NCBI GenBank assembly: GCA_963748825.1
Contig: CAVVKN010000002.1
Span: 32,001 to 96,000, forward strand
DNA: 64,000 bases
Direction: 5' to 3'
DNA from: Methanotrichaceae archaeon
GTDB taxonomy: Archaea > Halobacteriota > Methanosarcinia > Methanotrichales > Methanotrichaceae
Part shown: piece after piece, positions 4,154-32,360 of the stretch
Position numbering within the stretch: the first letter of the stretch is position 1
Layout: each line of letters begins with the position of its first letter
Notes under the pieces: model-generated
What the model was told of the DNA's origin: nothing
What the model saw: the letters and a program-made list of their open reading frames with translations, nothing else
Database searches by the model: none
Made by a program: the position numbers and the translations under genes

Positions 4154-4576
4154 CTACTCGCCAATGATCTGCACAATCACTTTTCTCTGCCTGGGCCGAT
4201 TGTCCAGCTCCAGGAAGACGATCTGCTGCCAGGTGCCCAGCATCAGCCTCCGCTCGCAAAAGGGCACGCTGAGGCTTGGCCCCAGCAGCGCTGCTCGGAT
4301 GTGGGAATGGCCGTTGCCGTCATGCCAGCACTCATTATGGGCGTAATTGATCTCCATCGGTGCCAGCCTCTGCAGGGCCTCGCCGAGATCCGCCACCAGC
4401 CCATCCTCGAACTCGATGGTGGTAACGGCTCCTGTGGCCCCGGGAACAAAGACGGTGACCACGCCCGCATGCAGAGACGTGCTCTGCAATGCCTCTTGCA
4501 CTTCATCTGTAATGTCCAACACTTCGCCGCTTAGCGTCTCAAACTCCAAGTATCTGGTTACAATCAAAGTTGTCAA
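4154..4576 (-). CDS. YjbQ/UPF0047 family protein
   Basis: DITDEV, GATGAVTTIE, HDGNGHSHIRA, LGTWQQIVFLELD. Confidence 0.92.
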   Translation of the reverse strand: MTTLIVTRYLEFETLSGEVLDITDEVQEALQSTSLHAGVVTVFVPGATGAVTTIEFEDGLVADLGEALQRLAPMEINYAHNECWHDGNGHSHIRAALLGPSLSVPFCERRLMLGTWQQIVFLELDNRPRQRKVIVQIIGE

Positions 4577-4622
4577 CTCCTGAGTGTCAAAAAATTATTT
4601 ATCGCTTCCCAGTAGATCTATC

Positions 4623-5516
4623 ATGATGGCCTACTATGAGGCAGTCCGGCGCATTCTGATAATAATATTCGTAATTAACATAGCCACTGCCTTCGCCAAG
4701 GGAGGCTATGGCCTTCTCACCAACTCCCTGAGCATGAGCGCAGACGGCCTGCATTCCATCTTCGATAGCACCTCCAACATCATCGGCCTGGTGGGCATCT
4801 CTCTGGCAGCCCGTCCTCCTGATAAGGAGTACCCCTACGGCCATGCCAAGTTCGAAACCTTTGCCTCTTTGGGAATAGCCGTGCTGCTATTTGCCAGCTC
4901 TATTCAACTGGTCCTGGCGGCCGTAAATCGCTTGCAAAGCCAGTCCACACCTCAGATAACCGAGCTATCTTTCGGCATTATGGGCATAACCCTGCTCATC
5001 AATATTGGCGTCTCGGCTTACGAATACATTCTGGGCAAAAGGCTGAAGAGCAGCATACTGGTGGCCGATTCCATGCATACGCGAAGCGACATTTTCGCTT
5101 CTGTGGGCGTCATCCTGGGACTTGTCGCCGTCAAGATGGGCTATCCTCTGGCCGATCCGATCATAGCTATGTTTATCTGCGGCCTGATCCTCTTGACTGG
5201 TCTCGAGATTGTAAAAGACAGCTCTAAGGTATTGCTGGACAAAGCTCTGGTCGAAGAGAGAGTGATTGTCGATCTGGCAAAGTCGGTAGATGGCGTTTGC
5301 ACCTGCCACCGCGTGCGCACGCGCGGCATGACAGGAGAGATTTATGTGGATCTGCATATCGGAGTTGACTCGTCGCTTTCCATAGATGCAGCTCATAAAG
5401 TGGGCGAGAGTGTGGTGAGTATGATAAAAAGCAAGATCCCAGAGGTCAGGGATGTGGTCGTGCATCTGGAGCCCAAGGACTACTGCGAGATAAAGGCCCG
5501 GACGGCTTTGAAATAG
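4623..5516 (+). CDS. cation diffusion facilitator family transporter
   Basis: ADGLHSIFD, PPDKEYPYGHAKFE, ADSMHTRSD, VDLHI, VHLEP. Confidence 0.93.
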   Translation: MMAYYEAVRRILIIIFVINIATAFAKGGYGLLTNSLSMSADGLHSIFDSTSNIIGLVGISLAARPPDKEYPYGHAKFETFASLGIAVLLFASSIQLVLAAVNRLQSQSTPQITELSFGIMGITLLINIGVSAYEYILGKRLKSSILVADSMHTRSDIFASVGVILGLVAVKMGYPLADPIIAMFICGLILLTGLEIVKDSSKVLLDKALVEERVIVDLAKSVDGVCTCHRVRTRGMTGEIYVDLHIGVDSSLSIDAAHKVGESVVSMIKSKIPEVRDVVVHLEPKDYCEIKARTALK

Positions 5517-5591: not shown

Positions 5592-8500
5592 ATGCAAAAT
5601 ATCACAATCACAGTCTCGGAGGCGGGAACTGCTGCCGCCAGGACCTTTGCCTACAAAATTCTGGTCGAGGGTAATGTCGTGGCAGAGAGAACGCTCACGC
5701 CAGTTCAAACTTCGCAGGTGCTAGAGACTTCATCTCAGTACTTCTCTCTTCTGCAGGGCACAGGGCAGGCCTCATCGAAAAGCTATCTGCCCATCCTCAG
5801 TGACGGGCTATTTCATCTCTTCTTAGAGAAAGGCTGGCAGGATTTCCAGGCCAAGATCTTGCCGGGTGCCAGACTTACTATCGCTTCGCCCATCCCGGAG
5901 GTGCTCCAGCTTCCCTGGGAGCTTCTTCCGCTTTTCGACCGGCAGATGGGCGACAGTGACAGCTTCGGCATCATTCGCCTGCCCAGGGCCACAGACGGGC
6001 TTATTGCCTCCTCGGTGAAGCTTTCGCCGGGGCCTTTGCGCGTACTTTTCCTGGCAGCCGAGCCGTTAGACTTTGAAGAAGAAGAGCAGTCGATCCAAAA
6101 GGTGTCAGAGGGCCTGGACATATCTCTCACGATCTGTGAAAGTGGCACCTGGGAAGAGTTGAAGAGCCTGGCTGAATCCTTCCAGCCTCATCTGGTGCAC
6201 CTGGCGGGCCAGGGAAAGATGTCCAGTGGCATTGTGGCATTCACTTTGCAGGGACCGGCGGGCCGGGTGGATCTGCGCTCGGCTGAGGAGATGGCCTTCG
6301 CCCTGAAGGACTCTGGCCTTGCGGGCATCATCCTGAGCGGCAAGCAGAGCGAGTCCGCTTCATCTCTACATCTGCTCTGCCAGAGGCTGGCGGAGAGCAT
6401 TCCACTGGCCGTGGCCTGGAATGCACCTACCGCGGCTACCCTGCCCTTATACCGGGCCCTGGCCGCGGGTCAATCAATGGATGAAGCGCTGCTATCCGTG
6501 CGCCGGGAGATCTCTGTAGCTCCTGTCCCTGCTCTTTCTCCGGTTTCCGTTCCAGTTCCCGCTCTGTACTCGATCTATGATCAACAAGGAATCTTCGACA
6601 TCCAAAAGAGAGAAGCTGCGCCTGCTTCCCTATGCCAGGAGTTCGCCGCCTTGCCGGGCCTGACGGAAGGCCGGGCGGAGTGCTTTGTGGACCGGAGACG
6701 GGATTTGCAGAAACTCCTTCCCGCTCTGCGAGAGGGTGGAGCGCAGGCTCTGATCATCACCGGCCCGGATGGCGTGGGCAAGAGCGCTCTGGCAGTTCAT
6801 CTCGCCCGCCTGCTGGCGCCCGCCGGCTACAGCATTCTGCCCATTTACAGCTCGCCGCATAATCGAATAAGCTCTGCCCGGCTCTTGGAGGCGGCTGTCG
6901 GCCATTTGAGCGGAATTGGAGAGGAAGCTGCTGCAAAAAGCCTCAAAGACCCGAGGCGCTCCGTCAGAGAGCGGCTACAGAATTTGATGGATGTGCTGAA
7001 AGCCTCTCGCATTCTGATGGTTTGGGATGGTCTGGACCTGGACGGGAAGACCGGCAAAATTTCTGACCCAGATTTGGCCGAGTTCTACAAGCTCATGATA
7101 AAAGGCATGACAGCAGGCCGCGTCATCATCACCTGCATGGCTTTGCCAGCCGATGCCCTGACCCTGCCCGCTCGCACCTGGCAGTGGAAGCTGGAGGGGC
7201 TTGGCCAGGCCGCATTCATTAGATATCTTCTCCGGGACGAGGCTGTGGTGGATCGCTATCGAAAAGGCGAGATCTCTTATGCCGAACTTGCCAAGCATCA
7301 CCTTGCGGCCTTGGGCCATCCGGCTCACCTGGCCCAAACAGGCAAAGCCTTGAGCTGGGGAGATCTCGCCGCCGACGAGGATCCGCTGGTAAAGCTCACT
7401 TCCCGGTTGGGCTCTGCCTCTAGCCACGCCCTCTTCCAGGCAGCGATCTTTAGCATAGCCATGAGCCCGGCTGGCCTGGCAGCCGTTTTCGGTGTAACAG
7501 AAGAGCAGTCCGCGGCCAATGCCCGTGAGTGGCAAGATCTCTCGTTGGCCTATGCAGTGGGAAAGCTGTGGGCAGTGCCATCAGCCCTTCGCGCTTCTCT
7601 CCTGGCGGCTTTGAGCCCGCAGGAACAGCGAGCTGCACAAAAGGCGGCCGGCGATTTTCTTAGAGACCTGGCCGTGGCCGGGCGCTCTGCAGAGCTCGGG
7701 CTCTCTCGCTTAGATGTCTTGCTGGAGGCGCGCGGGCACTATCTGTCGGCAGAGGATCTGGACGATGCAATCGCCGTAACTGCCCGCATCAGCGGCTATC
7801 TGCAAAGGCGCGGCTACTACTCTGAGCTGATGAGGCTAAACCAGGAGCTTTTGGATCTGGATAAGCAATCCGGCAGGCCTACGATCTGGATCGCCCAAGC
7901 CCATCTGGATCAGGGCGAATACAGAAAAGCGGCCGAATGGTACGGGCGAGCTCTGCAGATCGCCCCTGACGCTGCCGCTCAACACGGCCTGGGCACGGCT
8001 CTCCTGCACCAGGAAAAATATGACCTGGCAAAAGAGAGCCTGCAAAAGGCTGCGGATGCATTTCATGCAGCAGGTGACCCATCTGGGGAAGCGGCCAGCC
8101 TGAGTAGCCTGGCTGCCATTGACATGATGAAAAACGAAAATGAGGCCGCGAAAGAAAAGCTGCAGAAGATAGTAGAGATCATGAATAGCCTGGGGGATAT
8201 TAAGGGCGAGGCTGCAGCTTTGCAGGAGATGGCCCGACTGGATATGAATAGGTGTGATTATGACGGCGCGCGCCAGAGGCTCGTGAAATCATGTGAGCTA
8301 CTGGAAGAAGCCGGAGACAGGAAGGGCGCTGCTTTTGCCATCTTTAACCTGGCCAGCCTCGATCTGGAGAAGGGCGACTTCCAGCCAGCTGGCGCGGAGT
8401 TTGCGAAGGCTCTGCCACTTTTTCAGGAGATGGGCGATCGGGCCGGCGAAGCCGCCATCCTGCACAGCCTCGGCATGATCCATTCTCAGGCCGGAGAGAA

Positions 8501-9719: not shown

Positions 9720-11858
9720 CTATCCGCCTTTCGCCGCCGGAACCTCGTCCACCCCGCAGGCGGCGATCTTCTCGGCAAGCTTTGCCAGCACATCCTTTCT
9801 CATGCCGCCTACGAATTTGATTGATCCCACTACCAGATGCCCGCCTCCGGAGACGCCGCCATTGGGGATCTCCTCCATCAGTTCTTTTACCATTCTAGGA
9901 ATGTTCATTTTTACGGCCTTACTGCGCAGCACGGCAAAGTCCGGGCCGTAGCCAATGGTGACAACGGGCTTTCCGGCATACTTCTTGCAGAGTCGATCGT
10001 GCACCTCGCCACTGGTCTTGCCGGGCGGAGGGAAGGTGAACTTGTGGGCGAAGTTCTCCACATCCAGCACATTCATTATGATGCCATTGGGCAGTTTTGT
10101 GCTCTTCACATTGCCCATGCTGGCCCTCAGTTGCTCGTCAATGGCGGCATTGGCCTGCTCGCACAAAAGCTCCACGATCCTTTGATGCCGATCCAGCCGG
10201 CCCAGGCATAAGATGTCGTTTATCAGCCCCCGCCCGTCATTGAAGCGCTGCCAGAATGCCTCGTAGTCCAGGGCCAGAGCGACCTTCTTCAGGTCCTCCC
10301 GGCTGTACTTGTCCTCGACCAGCTTTATGTAAGCTGCCGCCTCCGGCGCTTCGCTTCTGTCGCCCACGGCTGAAACCGCCGGGAAGTGCTTGATCTTGCT
10401 CTCCACGGCAGGGTAGATCATGCGGGCGATCTCTGTGGCCAGCATGCCCGTGGTCAGCCCGAAGTCGCCGCCTGCGTGCGCGGGATTGACATGAGCGATA
10501 AGATACTGGTCCACGATCTTGTGGGGATGATGGTGATCTACGACCAGCATCTCCATTCCGTAGACCTGAGCCTGGCGCATGGCCGGAACATCCTCTTCCG
10601 TGGAGCCGTTGTCCATCAAAACTATGAGCGGCATCTTCTGGCCGTGCCGGGTCTGATCCTCCAGAGCATAGGTCAGATCCTTTGTCACATCCTCCAGCTC
10701 ATAAAAGGGCGCTTTGCTGGGAGCACGCCGGTAGTTGTGGTACTCGGCATCAGGCCCGCCTACCTCCGTGATGAGCGGCAAGATCGCCATCTCGATGGCT
10801 ACCGCCGCGGTGATGCCGTCGGCATCGGCGTGATGGCGCACCACTATGGGCTGGGACTTGAGAACCGCCCGGCGAATCTCCTTGGCCACTTGCTTCATGG
10901 CCGGCAAGAGCTTTGTCATGATCTCGCTTTTCACCAGAAACTCGGTCTCTGAGGGCTCGGCGCGCCGGTCAATCGCCTGTTCAATCAGGTCCTTGACAGT
11001 GGATGCTTCTCCGCCCCAAAGGCGCTTCATGGACTTGATCTCGACCTGAACCTGATTGTTGCGCAGGCTTACCTCGCCAATGACGCGCACCATCATCTCG
11101 TTGTCAATATCGGCGTAGGCCCGCACACCGGCCCGCTCAAAGGCGGCACAAAAGACCAGCCCGCAATCGTCCGCGATGGTGAAGATGGTCGGGCCCCCCG
11201 TCTGCTTGACCTGGATGACCTCCCCCTTGATCATGATCTGCTTTCCCACCAGCTTTTGCAGATCCGAGGTCTTGGATATTGGAAGCTCCTTTTCCACCTC
11301 AAAAGTGTTGTACTCCTTCAGCTCGGCCGGCTCCAGCTCAATGTTGCCGTTTGCAAGAATATTTCGCACCGTGACGAAGATGCTGTCGCCCACCTCAGGC
11401 TTGCTTTTCAGGTATTTGTTGTGGGCGAGGCCCCTCACGCTCTCGGATAGATCCACAAAGGCCCCAAAGCTGGCCAGGCCATTGACCTTTCCCTGATAAA
11501 TCTCGCCTACAACGACATCTCTGACATCACAAGCAGGATCGAGAATGTGCACGAGCGGCTTTTTGGCACAGCGCTCGCATAGCTCCTTTTTGCTAGTGAG
11601 CTTGGATTTGCACACGACGCACAGGTACTCGCGCCCCAGGCCCTCGCAGGTCGGGCAGCTCTCTGTAACCGGCATCTTGCCCGAGCCCTGGCAGACGCTG
11701 CATTTCGTGGAGCCGCTATCAATAAGCTCCTTCATATCCTTATCCGACGCCTCTCCCAGGGAGATGGATCCGGTCTTTCCGCTGCCACTGCAGTTGGGAC
11801 AGGGCTTCTCTCCTACCACCAGGTAGCCCTTGCCCCGACAAATCTCGCACAGGTTCAT
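9720..11858 (-). CDS. RecJ-like DHH phosphoesterase with DnaJ-type zinc finger, S1 and OB domains
   Basis: CxxCxGxG repeats, S1 (FGAFVDL), HHADADG, DNGS, VDHH, GGGH. Confidence 0.92.
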   Translation of the reverse strand: MNLCEICRGKGYLVVGEKPCPNCSGSGKTGSISLGEASDKDMKELIDSGSTKCSVCQGSGKMPVTESCPTCEGLGREYLCVVCKSKLTSKKELCERCAKKPLVHILDPACDVRDVVVGEIYQGKVNGLASFGAFVDLSESVRGLAHNKYLKSKPEVGDSIFVTVRNILANGNIELEPAELKEYNTFEVEKELPISKTSDLQKLVGKQIMIKGEVIQVKQTGGPTIFTIADDCGLVFCAAFERAGVRAYADIDNEMMVRVIGEVSLRNNQVQVEIKSMKRLWGGEASTVKDLIEQAIDRRAEPSETEFLVKSEIMTKLLPAMKQVAKEIRRAVLKSQPIVVRHHADADGITAAVAIEMAILPLITEVGGPDAEYHNYRRAPSKAPFYELEDVTKDLTYALEDQTRHGQKMPLIVLMDNGSTEEDVPAMRQAQVYGMEMLVVDHHHPHKIVDQYLIAHVNPAHAGGDFGLTTGMLATEIARMIYPAVESKIKHFPAVSAVGDRSEAPEAAAYIKLVEDKYSREDLKKVALALDYEAFWQRFNDGRGLINDILCLGRLDRHQRIVELLCEQANAAIDEQLRASMGNVKSTKLPNGIIMNVLDVENFAHKFTFPPPGKTSGEVHDRLCKKYAGKPVVTIGYGPDFAVLRSKAVKMNIPRMVKELMEEIPNGGVSGGGHLVVGSIKFVGGMRKDVLAKLAEKIAACGVDEVPAAKGG

Positions 11859-26275: not shown

Positions 26276-27526
26276 GTGAACAAAGAGTCTCATGTCCGTC
26301 ACCTTATCCGTAAAATAAAGGCATCCACCGCATCTACAAAGTTCAGCGAGGAGCCGTTAATATTAGGGCTAGCCCTATTACTAATGCTATTACTACTGTA
26401 TGCCTTTGGGGCCTTTGCGCCTCAGGAGGGGATGTGGAATGGAACCTATGGCGGTACTGGGTCGGATGTTGGAAACTCAGTCTTACAGGCCAAAGATGAC
26501 GGATATGTCATTGCAGGCACCACCAGTTCCTATGGTGTTGGTAAAGGTGATGCCTGGCTGATAAAGACGAATCAAAAGGGCAACGAGAAGTGGAACAGGA
26601 CTTTCGGCGGATCTAGCGATGACTCTGGTGAAGTAGTGTTGCAGATCGAAGACAGCAGCTATTTGCTCGCCGGCGCGACAAGCTCCTTTGGTGCTGGAGA
26701 TTTTGATGCCTGGCTGATAAAGACCAACTTTGATGGGAAAGAGCATTGGAATAAAACCTATGGAGGGTCCAGCTACGATTGGGGTTACTCGGTTCAGGAG
26801 ATAAAAGATGGTGGCTATATCATCGCTGGTGAGACGAGATCCTATGGGGCCGGTGGAAGCGATGTTTGGCTGATAAAAACCGATGCGTCCGGTAATGAGG
26901 ATTGGAATAGAACCTTCGGAGGGTCGAAGGACGACGGCGGTCGTGCGGTACAAAGGACTAAGGATGACGGCTATGTTATCGCAGGTTTCACAGAGTCTTA
27001 TGGTGCAGGCGGCAAAGATGTCTGGCTGATAAAGACGGATGCTGCGGGCAAAGAGCAATGGAATATAACTTTTGGGGGATCGAGAGACGACTGCGGAGAA
27101 TCAGTCCAGCAGGTAAAAGATGGTGGCTACATCATCGCAAGCGGTGCAAATGCTCCTCTGACTAATAAATCCCTCACGGGTGATGCCTGGCTGATAAGGA
27201 CTGATTCCAATGGCACCATGCAATGGGGCAAGATCTTCAGCTTCGGGAATTCGGACTATAATCTTGGCACCGCAGCGCAAGAGACAAAAGATGGCGGCTA
27301 TATCCTCGCAGGTTACGGCTTAGGTACTGAGATAGACGCATGGCTGATAAAAACCGATAACGTGGGAATGAAGAAATGGGATAGAGTCCTCGATGAATCG
27401 GGCAGAAATGAAGGCTCATCGGTCCAGCAAGCTAATGATGGCAGTTACATCAGTACTGGTTGGACGATCTCTTCCGGAAATGTCGATGCCTGGCTAATGA
27501 AAATAGCGGAGAGAATGGAGTCTTAA
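26276..27526 (+). CDS. secreted/membrane-anchored 7-repeat beta-propeller protein
   Basis: N-terminal hydrophobic helix; 7 ~50-aa repeats WNxTFGG...DGGYIIAG.T.SYGAG..D.WLIKTD. Confidence 0.85.
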   Translation: MNKESHVRHLIRKIKASTASTKFSEEPLILGLALLLMLLLLYAFGAFAPQEGMWNGTYGGTGSDVGNSVLQAKDDGYVIAGTTSSYGVGKGDAWLIKTNQKGNEKWNRTFGGSSDDSGEVVLQIEDSSYLLAGATSSFGAGDFDAWLIKTNFDGKEHWNKTYGGSSYDWGYSVQEIKDGGYIIAGETRSYGAGGSDVWLIKTDASGNEDWNRTFGGSKDDGGRAVQRTKDDGYVIAGFTESYGAGGKDVWLIKTDAAGKEQWNITFGGSRDDCGESVQQVKDGGYIIASGANAPLTNKSLTGDAWLIRTDSNGTMQWGKIFSFGNSDYNLGTAAQETKDGGYILAGYGLGTEIDAWLIKTDNVGMKKWDRVLDESGRNEGSSVQQANDGSYISTGWTISSGNVDAWLMKIAERMES

Positions 27527-27546: not shown

Positions 27547-27784
27547 ATTCATAGCCATTTTTCAGGCAGTTCTCTTTTCCAGCTTTCTCTGTGCTAAATA
27601 CTTGTGTGAAATAATTTCAGAATGATGGCACTTGAAAAGAGTTATGCCGTCCACTTATTCAGTTTGCATAGTTGCAATATGCTACGATATTAGTAATAAA
27701 ATATCTGCTGCATGCATGCTAAAGCTAAAATCCCTATCAGTGGCAAGCTGGAATGAAGATGCCTTTATTTAAACCTTTTCTTTT

Positions 27785-27856
27785 TGTTCAGAAAATCCGA
27801 ACAAACTGGTTAATATAGTATTTAAATCTTCTCTTTATGTTCGGAAAATCCGGGCA
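27785..27856 (+). promoter_or_regulatory. promoter with two 19-bp palindromic operators flanking the TATA box
   Basis: TGTTCAGAAAATCCGAACA (27785-27803) and TGTTCGGAAAATCCGGGCA (27838-27856) around TTTAAAT at 27821. Confidence 0.65.
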
Positions 27857-27944
27857 ATTTCAATAGATTTATCTAGTTATGAGTGGTATCAGTGGTTGTG
27901 CTTCCAAAAAGCACAGTTGAGCGAGTAAAGAGTGGGGAAATGTT

Positions 27945-28877
27945 ATGGAAGAAAAAGAAGCAAAGGATAAGCTGGCAAGCCTGCCTGTGAACCAGGCACC
28001 TTGCCAGGAGAGCCAAGAAAACAAAGCATCCTCCTCTCAGGAAATGGCAAAGCGTAGCTGTGGATGCGGAGAAGGTGCGAAAGCCAAGGGCACAAATGCG
28101 CCCCAATACGTCTACGCCCTTGGAAAGATCGAACCTCGCTTTCGAAGCATGGCCGTGGAAAGAGAGTTTGCCCAGGCCACTGGCAGGGCGGAGACAACCG
28201 GACTTACGGATCAACAGGCCTTCTATTCGGTTCTGTCAAAGAAGGAAAATAGGTATCTGGTACGTGATCTGTGTTGGGCCCTGGCCATAGGGGGTGTGGC
28301 CGCCTATATCCTGTTGCCGAAGGACCCATTGGATTTTGATCGTCTGGTGGAATCTGTCAATCCTCAACAGAATAAAGCGGACATAGATATCGTGGTCGGA
28401 TTAAAGGGACCAGTTGCTCCGCCTGAAATGTGCGCCGGGCTGCAGGTTCCCATAGTTGGGTTCGATCAGCTCTTCTCATTCAATAGAGAAGAGTTCATAA
28501 GGTCTATTCCACGTCCTGAGTCGATCCCTGAAAAGCAGGAGGAGAAGTTCAGAGCTGCCGCCAATGAGCTGTTCGACAGGATCCTGCAAATGGCGGACAA
28601 TACTGGAGCCACTGATGAACATAGGGCGCTGAATTACCTTTCAGTCCGATATCCAGCAATCTATGCCAAGGCGGCAGAGGAGTTCGAGTACAACTTTTCC
28701 CTGACAGGCGTAGAAGCCAGGCTATCGAGGCTAAGCGGAGCGCGAAAGATAGTCTCTGTGATCTTCACCTACACTAACAGGGAGACCGATGTCGTTGAGA
28801 AGTACTTCGTGCGCGTGGATGTGAGCGAAGAGTTTCCATTCCTGGTCACCAAGATGGCGCCGTACTACGACAGGTGA
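27945..28877 (+). CDS. stand-alone cyanobactin PatA/PatG C-terminal (DUF) domain protein
   Basis: SCGCG; YVYALGKIEPRF..VEREFAQ; RYL.RDLCW; NTGATDEHRALNYL..RYPAIY; SRLSG.R; KYFVRVDVSEEFPFLVTK..PYYDR; no subtilisin domain. Confidence 0.85.
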   Translation: MEEKEAKDKLASLPVNQAPCQESQENKASSSQEMAKRSCGCGEGAKAKGTNAPQYVYALGKIEPRFRSMAVEREFAQATGRAETTGLTDQQAFYSVLSKKENRYLVRDLCWALAIGGVAAYILLPKDPLDFDRLVESVNPQQNKADIDIVVGLKGPVAPPEMCAGLQVPIVGFDQLFSFNREEFIRSIPRPESIPEKQEEKFRAAANELFDRILQMADNTGATDEHRALNYLSVRYPAIYAKAAEEFEYNFSLTGVEARLSRLSGARKIVSVIFTYTNRETDVVEKYFVRVDVSEEFPFLVTKMAPYYDR

Positions 28878-28901
28878 ATAAATAAAACGGAGGTGAAATA
28901 T

Positions 28902-29078
28902 ATGACATGTTATTGCTGCTATAAATCCAATGGATCCTGTAGCTCTGGCCTCTTTTGTGCCTGGAACAACGTGGGCGCAGCATGCTCTGCTGCAGCTTCT
29001 GATTTTGCACGACGTTGTGGCAGTGGAGGGGGCTCTCTCTACTGGGGAATATACCCAGATTATTACTGCGGTTATTAG
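28902..29078 (+). CDS. Cys/Gly/Ser/Tyr-rich small peptide (58 aa)
   Basis: GGAGGTGA RBS at 28889-28896; MTCYCCYKSNGSCSSGLFCAWNNVGAACSAAASDFARRCGSGGGSLYWGIYPDYYCGY; T-rich tract follows. Confidence 0.75.
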   Translation: MTCYCCYKSNGSCSSGLFCAWNNVGAACSAAASDFARRCGSGGGSLYWGIYPDYYCGY

Positions 29079-29237
29079 GGAAATATGTATTAAAAATTTT
29101 TATTTTTTATTTTAAAAGTTATCTATTTATGATATATTTGTGAAATATTCTACATTAGGATTAAAAAATAATTGCCATCTTGCGATGACAATCTGATGAC
29201 AATCCACTTACTATGGACTATTCTTCCTACAACAATT

Positions 29238-30446
29238 TCACGTCTCTTTTAGTTTTATTAGCCAAGTATCAATATCGTATGAAGTGCGGCGATGCGCATT
29301 TGTGCTGCCCGCAATTATATATCCATCTTTTATCTCTTGAACGGAATTTGCACTCTGTGTTCCCTGTCCTCCAAAGGCTTTGGTCCATTTTAAAGTCCCA
29401 TCGGAATCAATCTTTATCAGTAGAGCGTCACCTGGATCCGTGGCATTAGTGTTTGTGTAACCTGCGATGATATACCCGCCATCCTTTGTCTCCTTTATCC
29501 AATCGCCTTCATCTCTGCCAGGTCCACCAAATGTTTTATTCCACTCTACAATACCCTTTGAATTAGTTTTCACTACTAAGACATCGCTTTCCAGCTCAGC
29601 TTCATTAAACAACGCATTCGTCCATCCTGTAATAATATATCCTTTACCTTTTATTTCTTGAACAGATCTGCCAACATCCCCACTAGATCCGCCAAAAGTT
29701 TTATCCCATTCTTTATTTCCATCTGAATCTGTCTTTATCAGCCATGCATCAGCACTACCTGCACCATACGATTCAGTAAGACCTGTTACGATAAAACCAC
29801 TATCTTCTGTTTCAACTACTGACCACCCTTCATCATCCCCTGGCCCACCGAACGTTTTGTTCCACTGCTCTTTACCTGTTGAATCAGTCTTTATAAGCCA
29901 CAGATCGTCCTTTCCAAAGCCGTATGAGCTAGTAGCACCTGCAATGATATACCCGTCGTCTTTTGTCTCTTGGACCGAGTAGCCAGCATCATTATCCCGG
30001 CCTCCGAAAGTATTATCCCATTTTTTATTTCCCTTTGAATCCGTCTTTATTAGCCATGTATCGCTTTTTCCATTTCCATAGGACTCAGTGTAGCCTGTAA
30101 TAATGTATCCGCCATCTTTTGCCTGTTGGACGGACATACCTACATCAAGATTTACTCCACCAATGGTCTTATTCCACTCCTCAGTGCCATTTGAATCGGT
30201 CTTTATCAGCCAGAGATCACCGCCTCCCGCACCATAAGACTCTGTTAAACCTGTTAAGATGTACCCACTATCTCTTGTTACTTGGACTGAACCTCCTGGG
30301 TCGTTGCCATTGCCGCCGAAAGTTTTGTTCCATACCTCTTCAGGCTGAGCTGAAGCACCTAATATACTTAGCATCAGCATTGCTAACCCCAATATTACTA
30401 CTATCTTCAAAATATATCGCCTCTCAAAGTTGGTTGCATTTTTCAT
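29238..30446 (-). CDS. secreted 7-repeat beta-propeller protein (paralogue of 26276-27526)
   Basis: Signal peptide ending ASA-Q; 7 WNKTFGG...WLIKTDS repeats. Confidence 0.85.
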   Translation of the reverse strand: MKNATNFERRYILKIVVILGLAMLMLSILGASAQPEEVWNKTFGGNGNDPGGSVQVTRDSGYILTGLTESYGAGGGDLWLIKTDSNGTEEWNKTIGGVNLDVGMSVQQAKDGGYIITGYTESYGNGKSDTWLIKTDSKGNKKWDNTFGGRDNDAGYSVQETKDDGYIIAGATSSYGFGKDDLWLIKTDSTGKEQWNKTFGGPGDDEGWSVVETEDSGFIVTGLTESYGAGSADAWLIKTDSDGNKEWDKTFGGSSGDVGRSVQEIKGKGYIITGWTNALFNEAELESDVLVVKTNSKGIVEWNKTFGGPGRDEGDWIKETKDGGYIIAGYTNTNATDPGDALLIKIDSDGTLKWTKAFGGQGTQSANSVQEIKDGYIIAGSTNAHRRTSYDIDTWLIKLKET

Positions 30447-31041: not shown

Positions 31042-32360
31042 GTACAGCTGGGCTGATATAAACCAACGTATAAGGTTTTATATATAATCATTGATAGATA
31101 CTCTGCAACAGGGGAGTATCAATGCCGGGTCCGAAACCATCAGCAATCAACTTGAACGACATCGAGCGCCAAGGTTTGGAATTGCTTGTTCGTCGTTATA
31201 ATACAGGACAGCAAAAAGTTATCCGAGCACGGATTGTTTTGTTGGCTGCAATGGGGAAAAATAATCGCGAAATCGCTAATGAATTAGAGGTGTCCTTGGA
31301 CACTGCTCGATTATGGCGGCAACGATGGCTGGACTTGCAGCCGATTTCTTTGGACGATCTGAGCATTGAAGAACGCTTGGATGACCTGCCAAGACCTGGA
31401 GCCCCATCTCGTTTAACCGCAAACCAAATTTGTCAGATCCAACAGCTGGCTTGTGAGAAACCTGAAAAATCGGGCCGTCCAATTAGCCAATGGACAAGTC
31501 GTGAGATTGCGGCTGAAATAATGAAGCGGGGCATTGTAGATACGATTTCTGCTCGTCATTCTGCCAGGATTTTAAAAAAAATGGTCTCCAACCACACTTG
31601 ATTCGTTACTGGCTAACACCTGCACCGGACGAACGGTTCGACGAAAAGGTAGACGACATCAATTCATTGTATCAACAAGCGCAGAATTTGGCTCAAAAAG
31701 GTGAAGTTGTAATGAGCATCGATGAAATGACAGGGGTGCAAGCTCTCGAACGCAAACACCCTGGATTGCCAATGGCACCAGGAAAAGTGGAACGAAGAGA
31801 GTTTGAATACATCAGGCATGGAACTCAATCATTCATCGTGAGCTTTGCGGTAGCCAGCGGAAGGGTTGACACCATTTCTTGCGGCGATACGCGCAATGAG
31901 GATGACTTCGTATCGCATATCAAGAAGGTGGTTGAAAGCACTTTAGACGCATCCCGCTGGCACTTTGTAGCCGACAACCTCAATATCCATAAATCAGAAT
32001 CCCTCGTGAGGTATGTGGCAGAAGTATCTGACTTGGACATCGACTTAGGAATCAAAGGCAAAAGCGGTGTTTTGCAGTCGATCGATACTCGTGAATCATT
32101 CTTGACCGATCCATCCCACTCTATCGTCTTTCACTACACGCCGATACACGCTTCTTGGATGAACCAAGTTGAAATATGGTTTAGCATCTTAGTCCGGAAG
32201 CTGCTCAGGCGAGCCTCCTTTGCTTCCATCAATGATTTGAAAGCAAAGGTTTTGGCGTTTGTCGAGTACTTCAACCAGACAATGGCAAAGCCGTTCAAAT
32301 GGACATATCGAGGGAGAGCACTTACTGCCTAAAATTAGGCTTATTTAAGCCCAGATGTAC
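31042..32360 (+). mobile_element. IS630-family insertion sequence
   Basis: TA duplication within CTAG target; imperfect TIRs GTACAGCTGGGCTGATATAAACC / GGCTTATTTAAGCCCAGATGTAC; two transposase ORFs. Confidence 0.93.
31122..32332 (+). CDS. IS630 transposase (orfA 31122-31601, orfB to 32332; probable -1 frameshift)
   Basis: HTH (RARIVLL, PRPGAP) + DDE ([21 protein letters not shown]); A8 run at 31574-31581 joins frames to give [14 protein letters not shown]. Confidence 0.88.

Follow-up and report, generated by a model that had tools for sequence, protein, structure and literature searches.

A stand-alone PatA/PatG-type domain protein with a leaderless cysteine-rich peptide and a co-varying propeller in Methanotrichaceae: a putative reduced split-PatA system

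Why would a methanogenic archaeon carry the C-terminal domain of the cyanobactin proteases PatA and PatG as a free-standing protein, directly in front of a gene for a small cysteine-rich peptide? We addressed this question for a stretch of 64,000 nucleotides (nt) from a Methanotrichaceae archaeon, a relative of Methanothrix (assembly GCA_963748825.1, contig CAVVKN010000002.1, positions 32,001 to 96,000), hereafter the window. Its positions 27945-28877 encode, on the plus strand, a protein of 310 amino acids (aa) made of the PatG_D and PatG_C domains, which we call the DUF (domain of unknown function); positions 28902-29078 on the same strand encode a 58-aa peptide with eight cysteines, and behind them lies, in convergent orientation, a gene for an SBBP-repeat β-propeller (hereafter SBBP; 29238-30446, minus strand). 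An earlier note, made from the sequence alone, had singled out the first two genes as an operon and a minimal archaeal module. The explanation that we favour, with a probability of roughly one half, is a reduced, leaderless split-PatA system in which the DUF would act as a generic handler of peptide cores, the peptide would be the product and the propeller its allele-specific partner. As far as sequence comparison can tell, the novelty is the form of the cassette in Methanotrichaceae, which lacks the protease, the mini-protein and the leader of the mostly bacterial cassette described below.

The stand-alone DUF and the small gene behind it

Pfam recognised PatG_D (PF18047) at DUF residues 55-154 (E = 4.2e-34; 117.8 bits against a cut-off of 27) and PatG_C (PF18065) at residues 196-307 (E = 5.6e-39; 133.2 bits against a cut-off of 25.9), and matched no subtilase, Peptidase_S8 or oxidase domain in the protein. 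The DUF also falls outside the PatA/PatG cyanobactin maturation protease family TIGR03895: it has no S8 domain and aligns to model positions 294-526 with 22.6 bits, under the cut-off of 421. An AlphaFold2 model based on an alignment of 87 homologues (mean predicted local distance difference test score, pLDDT = 81) comprises a folded core at residues 51-310 (pLDDT about 90) and a disordered tail at residues 1-50 (pLDDT below 50) that contains a CGC motif. Searched with Foldseek, the model retrieved the PatA/PatG DUF structure 4UVQ (E = 1.8e-14; TM = 0.65/0.75; 19% identity) as the sole match at E ≤ 0.001, the next one having E = 0.03. A single-sequence search of the PDB with the DUF did not find 4UVQ; a family profile reached it at E = 7.5e-5. 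Domain matches and fold thus bear out the description of a stand-alone PatG_D/PatG_C protein without protease or oxidase domain given in the earlier note, and the motifs named there can be read in the translation.

The DUF is present in the cyanobactin pathways characterised to date and is not known to have a function; in its one structural study, no ligand was found (PMC4259220). The window protein resembles this domain in its two Pfam halves, its fold and the presence of peptide genes nearby, but it is free-standing, shares only those 19% of residues, and has C163, C110 and a disordered N-terminal tail. Across 87 sequences the mean column identity of the stand-alone family is 60%, and 28 columns are invariant, including C163, D218, N219, R227, N230, R235, Y236, R290 and D292. 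C163 is invariant and C110 near-invariant within this family, and the aligned PatG-DUF has other residues at both positions. The residues that hold Zn in 4UVQ are reported to show little conservation even within the cyanobactin DUFs (PMC4259220). H226, considered as an invariant metal ligand, was ruled out, being replaced in 10 of the 87 sequences. The disordered tail contains CxC or CxxC in 74 of 103 homologues and lacks both in the other 29; such a motif is also missing from the DUF of one Methanotrichaceae genome (G020), although the cassette there is otherwise complete. The motif is therefore not essential, and the idea of a redox-active CGC tail as the functional key is weakened. The closest named protein, from Methanothrix soehngenii (93% identical), bears the database name "cyanobactin maturation protease PatG family protein". 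For stand-alone DUFs, which number thousands of proteins, this name is misleading because they have no protease domain.

The DUF stop codon (28875-28877) is separated by 24 nt (28878-28901) from the ATG of the peptide gene at 28902. Within this gap, at 28889-28896 on the plus strand, a Shine-Dalgarno-like ribosome-binding site (RBS), GGAGGTGA, can be read from the sequence 5 nt before the ATG; spacing, RBS and the 58-codon open reading frame (ORF) with eight cysteines agree with the earlier note. The peptide starts with M-T-C, has a cysteine cluster at residues 3, 5 and 6, and is 19% aromatic. Together with four relatives, from the complete genome of a member of the same genus (G049) and from three other genera, it forms a "CYCC...YPDxYC" family with 13 invariant columns, six of which are cysteines; these columns include the initial M, CYCC, three further cysteines and a P-D pair near the C-terminus. 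Such invariance across genera identifies the small ORF as a conserved gene rather than a chance frame. Otherwise, the window peptide and six others gave just chance-level matches in Pfam and NCBIfam, no homologues were found by a shared-word search of a large protein collection or in a protein atlas, and the window peptide is not a called protein in that collection. PADLOC matched no family to the DUF, the peptide or SBBP.

A widespread bacterial cassette and its counterpart in Methanotrichaceae

DUF relatives proved numerous. Among 8,000 proteins scored in the large protein collection, at least 7,564 of stand-alone size (170-543 aa) matched at E ≤ 0.001, the best 120 homologues being 55-94% identical to the window DUF, and a representative library clustered at 50% identity yielded 1,966 clusters at the same threshold. 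A one-genome-per-species collection contained 305 loci with a DUF relative; the best 80 were kept for neighbourhood work, with the window added as an 81st locus for the protease count. Hosts of the best 80 include Acidobacteriota, Nitrosomonadaceae, Cyanobacteriota, Nitrospirota, Planctomycetota, Methanoperedens and others. Closer to the window, occurrence is patchy: its own genome has a single DUF copy, the DUF occurs in 8 of 61 genomes of the family and in one of the 15 other genomes of the genus, and PatG_C was found in 3 of 401 genomes of an even phylum sample that includes the window's genome. Because methanogen and soil-bacterial DUFs are nonetheless 55-68% identical over their full length, this distribution suggests horizontal spread under strong constraint. 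In a further genome of the same class (G427; loci L118 and L120), PatG_C matches fall at the end of a 690-aa frame and in the following 59-aa frame, perhaps because this other methanogen lineage has a fused PatA-like gene that is frameshifted.

Read from these neighbourhoods, the canonical form of the locus is a split PatA-like cassette consisting of a PatA-like S8 protease, a CxxC mini-protein, the DUF and leader-bearing cysteine-rich peptides; it is very widespread and mostly bacterial. A protease gene of about 290 codons lies upstream of the DUF on the same strand at 72 of the 81 loci, and the protease matches the PatA model TIGR03895 at E = 2.7e-30. Among the nine loci without it, four end within 150 nt upstream of the DUF (L008, L032, L041 and L048), two have just about 1 kb of upstream DNA (L034 and L002) and one is a second copy in a metagenome-assembled genome whose other copy has the protease (L080); the remaining two are the window and L004, and the Methanothrix loci are L002, L004 and the window. 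A mini-protein gene between protease and DUF was found with a loose motif at 44 or more of the 80 loci, a lower bound, with a stricter motif finding 34 of 80 and missing visible cases. Cyanobacterial loci have no mini-protein, and the gap between protease and DUF is 7-21 nt there. The mini-protein itself (e.g. L011:3376-3591 and L014:5750-5968) shows an L-P-G-F motif followed by a CGGC-type motif. The former resembles the P-G-F of the precursor leaders, and the mini-protein may act as a precursor mimic or as a competitor of precursors.

Most of these DUFs are followed on the 3' side by one to several small ORFs that share an MPGFTAEASLY-type leader and continue with a variable cysteine-rich part, so that a single DUF serves several different peptides. 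In total, 177 distinct leader-bearing peptides were collected from 70 of the 80 loci; 145 have an even and 29 an odd number of cysteines, and three have none (145/174 of the cysteine-containing ones even). The DUF also occurs at the C-terminal end of larger proteins, as in 17 of the 150 best representatives (559-730 aa). Five such fusions were scanned: two are full-length S8 plus DUF, two are shorter with the end of an S8 domain, and one joins JmjC_2 to the DUF. The last (P0211 of the representative library, 710 aa) combines JmjC_2, a cupin oxygenase-type domain, with C-terminal PatG_D and PatG_C; in the literature searched, we found no mention of JmjC_2 as a fusion partner of the DUF. A kinase-bearing PatG-type protein has been published, as the available part of that report indicates (PMC12639078). 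Our literature searches returned no paper describing the canonical split cassette or its Methanotrichaceae form, and the available text of the preprint "Bacteriocins in archaea" does not mention the cassette.

In Methanotrichaceae, each of the 16 DUF 3' ends that lie on a contig (15 tabulated together and one more) is followed by about 25-30 nt, an RBS and a short cysteine-rich ORF, which is more than chance would produce. The RBS contains GGAGGTG in all cases save one cassette with TGAGGTG. The 16 peptides have 39-71 aa, 7-21% aromatic residues, six or eight cysteines and a cysteine cluster within the first 3-12 residues. Their cysteine count is even in 16 of 16, a figure to be read without a formal test as the sequences are related; taken with the canonical peptides, this bias is what pairwise use of cysteines, in disulfides or other two-cysteine links, would predict. 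The idea in the earlier note that small cysteine-rich ORFs follow stand-alone homologues has thus held, both in this family and, with leader-bearing peptides, at 70 of the 80 other loci. The "minimal archaeal module" has not: the arrangement is not peculiar to archaea and looks like a reduced form of the widespread, mostly bacterial cassette.

Several canonical parts are absent here. None of the 16 peptides has an MPGFTAEASLY-type leader, and the window peptide shows no PatE-like leader or recognition sequences. No PatA-like S8 gene lies directly upstream of the DUF at the window, L002 or L004, and a dedicated S8 is missing from the window's genome, where the ORF most like the Methanoperedens protease (633 aa, 31% identity) lies on another contig. 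Pfam identified two S8 genes (contigs C4 and C10) and one YcaO gene (C25) in this genome and neither kind on the window's contig (C2), as the earlier note had observed for the locus. A search for the mini-protein in the same genome gave a best match of E = 0.05, and neither strand of the window contains its CxxC motif, nor do six further Methanotrichaceae loci. The DUF itself has largely kept its canonical features. We classed 73 columns that show at least 95% conservation among 48 canonical DUFs: 65 of them persist in 90% or more of 12 Methanotrichaceae DUFs, and eight are largely changed. The conserved function of the DUF is therefore independent of protease, mini-protein and leader, and has to relate either to the peptide core or to something generic. 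The two cassette forms are alike in their orthologous DUF, their variable cysteine-rich cores and their mostly even cysteine counts. In contrast to the canonical cassette, the Methanotrichaceae form has no S8, mini-protein or leader, has one DUF per peptide instead of one for several, and has gained a co-varying SBBP neighbour or, in a second type, a TPR protein.

Both types coexist in the complete genome G049, which has seven DUF genes in two arrays. Four of its cassettes follow the order DUF, peptide and convergent SBBP, and three belong to the second type, in which a 303-aa DUF precedes the peptide and a TPR protein and an ABC exporter ATPase fragment lie nearby. These fragments (L102, minus strand, 4361-4852, 7852-8400 and 11466-11645; 59-182 aa) correspond to the ATPase end of an HlyB/MsbA-type ABC exporter and stand directly upstream of DUFs; a broken exporter appears to have been duplicated along with the cassette. 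Six genomes of other genera (G020, G041, G038, G046, G004 and G009) have one or two cassettes each, and the order DUF, peptide and convergent SBBP recurs in the first three amid unrelated chromosomal surroundings. In G038 the DUF (L124:9882-10700, also L087) matches in two frames, covering residues 14-105 and 101-310, within an otherwise complete cassette; this may reflect frameshift and decay or a sequencing error. At another G049 locus (L101:540-1224), the conserved promoter-like region of the DUF cassettes precedes a Tyr/Trp-rich ORF of up to 156 aa with several cysteines and no DUF gene, which may be another product under the same control.

Mosaic alleles, a co-varying propeller and the surroundings of the locus

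Comparison of the window with the G049 cassettes revealed a sharp boundary: DNA identity is high through the DUF 3' end and the RBS and collapses exactly at the peptide ATG. Peptide alleles are wholly different between cassettes; the DUFs are 84-94% identical and have been swapped between them. Metagenome contigs carry the same discrete G049 peptide alleles, unchanged, in a mosaic pattern. For example, G049 cassette 1 and L108 share an identical peptide gene (195/195 nt) next to DUF genes with 91.7% nt identity, and L108 and L110 have unrelated peptide alleles next to DUF genes with 97.1% nt identity.

The convergent SBBP gene follows the peptide rather than the DUF. In the window it encodes 402 aa with a Sec-type signal peptide in which, as read from the sequence, there is no lipobox cysteine, and it matches the NCBIfam SBBP family at E = 1.3e-13 with a score under the cut-off. 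SBBP proteins are 99-100% identical within a peptide allele and 48-67% identical between alleles; the window SBBP has its highest identity (60%) with the SBBP that accompanies the peptide type most like the window's own. In a quickly built SBBP tree, sequences cluster by peptide type and branches are long. The DUFs of these cassettes gave a shallow tree (paths ≤0.1 within the genus) that does not follow peptide type. From this contrast, the DUF is interchangeable among cassettes, whereas peptide and propeller have diverged deeply together. The operon proposed in the earlier note can be kept for DUF and peptide, which look like a single unit with its own conserved upstream region, but the note had left unlinked the third, co-varying member.

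That upstream region, about 230 nt in front of the DUF, has 89% column-wise identity among the window and five G049 cassettes. It includes, on the plus strand at 27766-27857, two tandem promoter-like units, each with TATTTAAA, a T-rich stretch and a palindrome of the TTGTTCAGA..TCCGAACAA type. The "doubled palindrome" noticed before corresponds to a 39-nt direct repeat (27766-27804 and 27819-27857; copies 85% alike), each copy with TATTTAAA and a 10-nt inverted repeat, and the units are probably archaeal TATA boxes with an operator. The T-rich end reported with it was also seen, in the tail past the peptide stop (29079-29125, plus strand); it is likely an archaeal oligo-T terminator region, and T-runs occur 3' of the peptide in the G049 cassettes as well. 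Upstream of these elements lies a second SBBP gene (26276-27526, plus strand; 416 aa), a paralogue of the downstream propeller with a hydrophobic N-terminal segment, which matches the NCBIfam SBBP beta-propeller lipoprotein family at E = 1.3e-8 with a score far under the model cut-off. The SBBP family has just three loci in this genome, two of which flank the cassette. On the other side, about 0.7 kb past the downstream propeller, two neighbouring ORFs (31122-32332; HTH_32/HTH_29 and DDE_3 endonuclease) form an IS630-type transposase, and the cassette thus adjoins a mobile element.

Possible roles of the DUF, the peptide and the propeller

These comparisons can be combined into a mechanism that we regard as about 50% probable. 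The locus is a three-gene cassette, with DUF and leaderless cysteine-rich peptide probably made from one transcript and a convergent secreted propeller, and it would be a reduced form of the widespread split-PatA peptide system. With leader, protease and mini-protein gone, the ribosome would make the peptide core directly, and the DUF would be a leader-independent, generic handler acting on that core. Most likely it binds or docks the core in a chaperone-like manner rather than acting as a catalyst; a docking role is favoured because the same domain is fused to enzymes of unrelated chemistry (S8, JmjC_2 and the kinase-bearing PatG-type protein). As a hypothesis, the role suggested in the earlier note, with the DUF binding, scaffolding or chaperoning the peptide, fits the comparative data. 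The peptide would be the product, with its cysteines used in pairs, and would probably be exported; the propeller would be its allele-specific partner, as a receptor, binder or immunity protein. We infer DUF-peptide binding, cysteine pairing, export and the propeller's role from the pattern of genes and residues. Co-folding of the DUF core with the peptide scored 0.02 against a mark of 0.32 and gave no evidence in either direction.

A number of observations weigh against this mechanism. The invariant polar residues and C163 of the DUF would equally suit an active site. The window peptide has no signal peptide and the cassette contains no exporter, and disulfides would be unexpected around a strict anaerobe. 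PatG-DUF, the only DUF examined biochemically so far, did not bind the linear precursor in the structural study, with or without heterocycles (PMC4259220). This does not contradict a core-handling role, because processed cores were not assayed in that study (PMC4259220) and the core would be made directly here; the domain used in that study is, moreover, the one with 19% identity to the window DUF. Co-inheritance of peptide and SBBP and the 1:1 ratio of DUF to peptide could result from block duplication and physical linkage alone. The trees are quick, unrooted reconstructions with support only from the Shimodaira-Hasegawa-like approximate likelihood ratio test (SH-aLRT), and do not polarise loss against gain of S8 and leader; in the 58-row tree, 12 of the 70 collected rows had been dropped, their core start having been missed by the motif filter. 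In RNA libraries from four studies there are contigs covering DUF-gene relatives with 90-99% likeness; where their ends continue past 28898, they enter the first part of two other peptide alleles. This agrees with co-transcription of DUF and peptide in relatives, with the reservation that such contigs may include DNA and come from those relatives. Contigs at 90% or more likeness end near 28923 and leave 28924-29200 uncovered; as the peptide region of the window is allele-specific, this gap is uninformative on its expression.

Among the alternatives, the DUF might be an enzyme that modifies the peptide core, for instance by cross-linking cysteines or by oxidative folding, rather than a passive binder. 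Its extreme conservation across domains of life speaks for catalysis, as do the invariant C163 with its cluster of polar residues, the specificity of C110 and C163 for the stand-alone family and their replacement in PatG-DUF, the CxC/CxxC tail in most homologues together with even cysteine counts in the peptides, and the persistence of 65 conserved columns without a partner enzyme. However, no cofactor or catalytic motif was recognised, the fold search found only 4UVQ and hence no enzymatic relative, the tail motif is missing from 29 of 103 homologues and from the G020 DUF, H226 is not invariant, and fusion to several unrelated enzymes fits an accessory module better. We therefore consider an enzymatic DUF unlikely, if deserving of attention. 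A different role for the cysteines would be metal binding inside the cell, with a metallothionein-like or cluster-carrying peptide, the DUF as its metallochaperone and nothing exported. Six to eight cysteines with CxC and CC motifs at the N-terminus would suit such a peptide, the missing signal peptide and exporter would be expected, a reducing cytoplasm favours thiolate-metal sites over disulfides, and PatG-DUF crystallised with bound Zn (PMC4259220). Yet metallothioneins, which are cysteine-rich metal binders, are poor in aromatic residues, and the 7-21% found here differs from that. Hypervariable alleles and multiple paralogous cassettes (seven in G049) would be unexpected for metal homeostasis, the co-varying partner is a secreted propeller, the canonical cognate peptides have a cleavable leader and a dedicated protease, and ABC exporter fragments accompany the second cassette type. 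On balance, an intracellular metal-binding system seems improbable.

Tight 1:1 coupling, a variable small product and multiplied cassettes also recall toxin-antitoxin pairs, with the peptide as toxin and the DUF as its antidote or immunity protein. Immunity proteins, however, co-vary with their toxins, and the DUF does not: DUF genes with 97.1% identity accompany unrelated peptides, those with 91.7% identity accompany identical ones, the DUF tree is discordant with peptide type, and one bacterial DUF serves several peptides. With no PADLOC family matched either, we give this reading very little credence. Equally hard to sustain is the view that the cassette is the decaying remnant of a transferred bacterial system, with an untranslated small ORF and a DUF that has no role in a methanogen. 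It would explain the patchy occurrence (8 of 61 genomes in the family, 3 of 401 in the phylum sample), the adjoining IS630-type transposase, the DUF split over two frames in G038 and the fragmentary ABC exporter genes in G049. Against it, DUFs are intact in five genera with the 65 conserved columns kept, every peptide ORF is open with a strong RBS and an even cysteine count, different genera share the cysteine framework, independent metagenomes contain identical peptide alleles, and RNA-library contigs of relatives run from the DUF 3' end into the starts of peptide paralogues.

Set beside known systems, the preferred reduced split-PatA cassette shares with the cyanobactin (patellamide-type) pathway a ribosomal peptide next to a PatA/PatG-derived protein, but the window locus has no protease, macrocyclase, oxidase, heterocyclase, leader or recognition sequences. 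Another parallel is offered by leaderless bacteriocins and by the LanI-type surface immunity proteins of lantibiotic producers: a small peptide made without a leader, polymorphic alleles and a neighbouring extracytoplasmic protein that varies with the peptide. Judged by its genes alone, the cassette is alike in outline; it differs in that it contains no exporter, its peptides share no sequence with known families and its propeller has no lipobox cysteine. More tentatively than the reduced cassette itself, we envisage, in Methanothrix and its relatives, a polymorphic peptide-receptor system in which a leaderless, cysteine-paired peptide and a matching secreted propeller have diversified together and the DUF is a universal, interchangeable handler of cores. 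If this is true, the peptide-propeller pair may constitute a code for kin or filament recognition, or an archaeocin with its surface immunity protein.

The Methanotrichaceae cassette offers a natural minimal system, a DUF and a peptide with no leader, protease or tailoring enzyme, so that whatever the DUF does, it acts on the core itself. The question of DUF function is thereby reduced to two small proteins and becomes directly testable. Methanothrix is a major acetate-using methanogen of digesters and wetlands, and to our knowledge peptide-based interactions in this genus are essentially unknown. The present analysis reveals in it an unannotated, hypervariable family of cysteine-rich peptides with a co-varying secreted propeller. 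Should the more tentative peptide-receptor reading prove correct, core-peptide docking would be the role of the cyanobactin DUF, and a class of ribosomal peptides not seen before would be added to those of methanogens.

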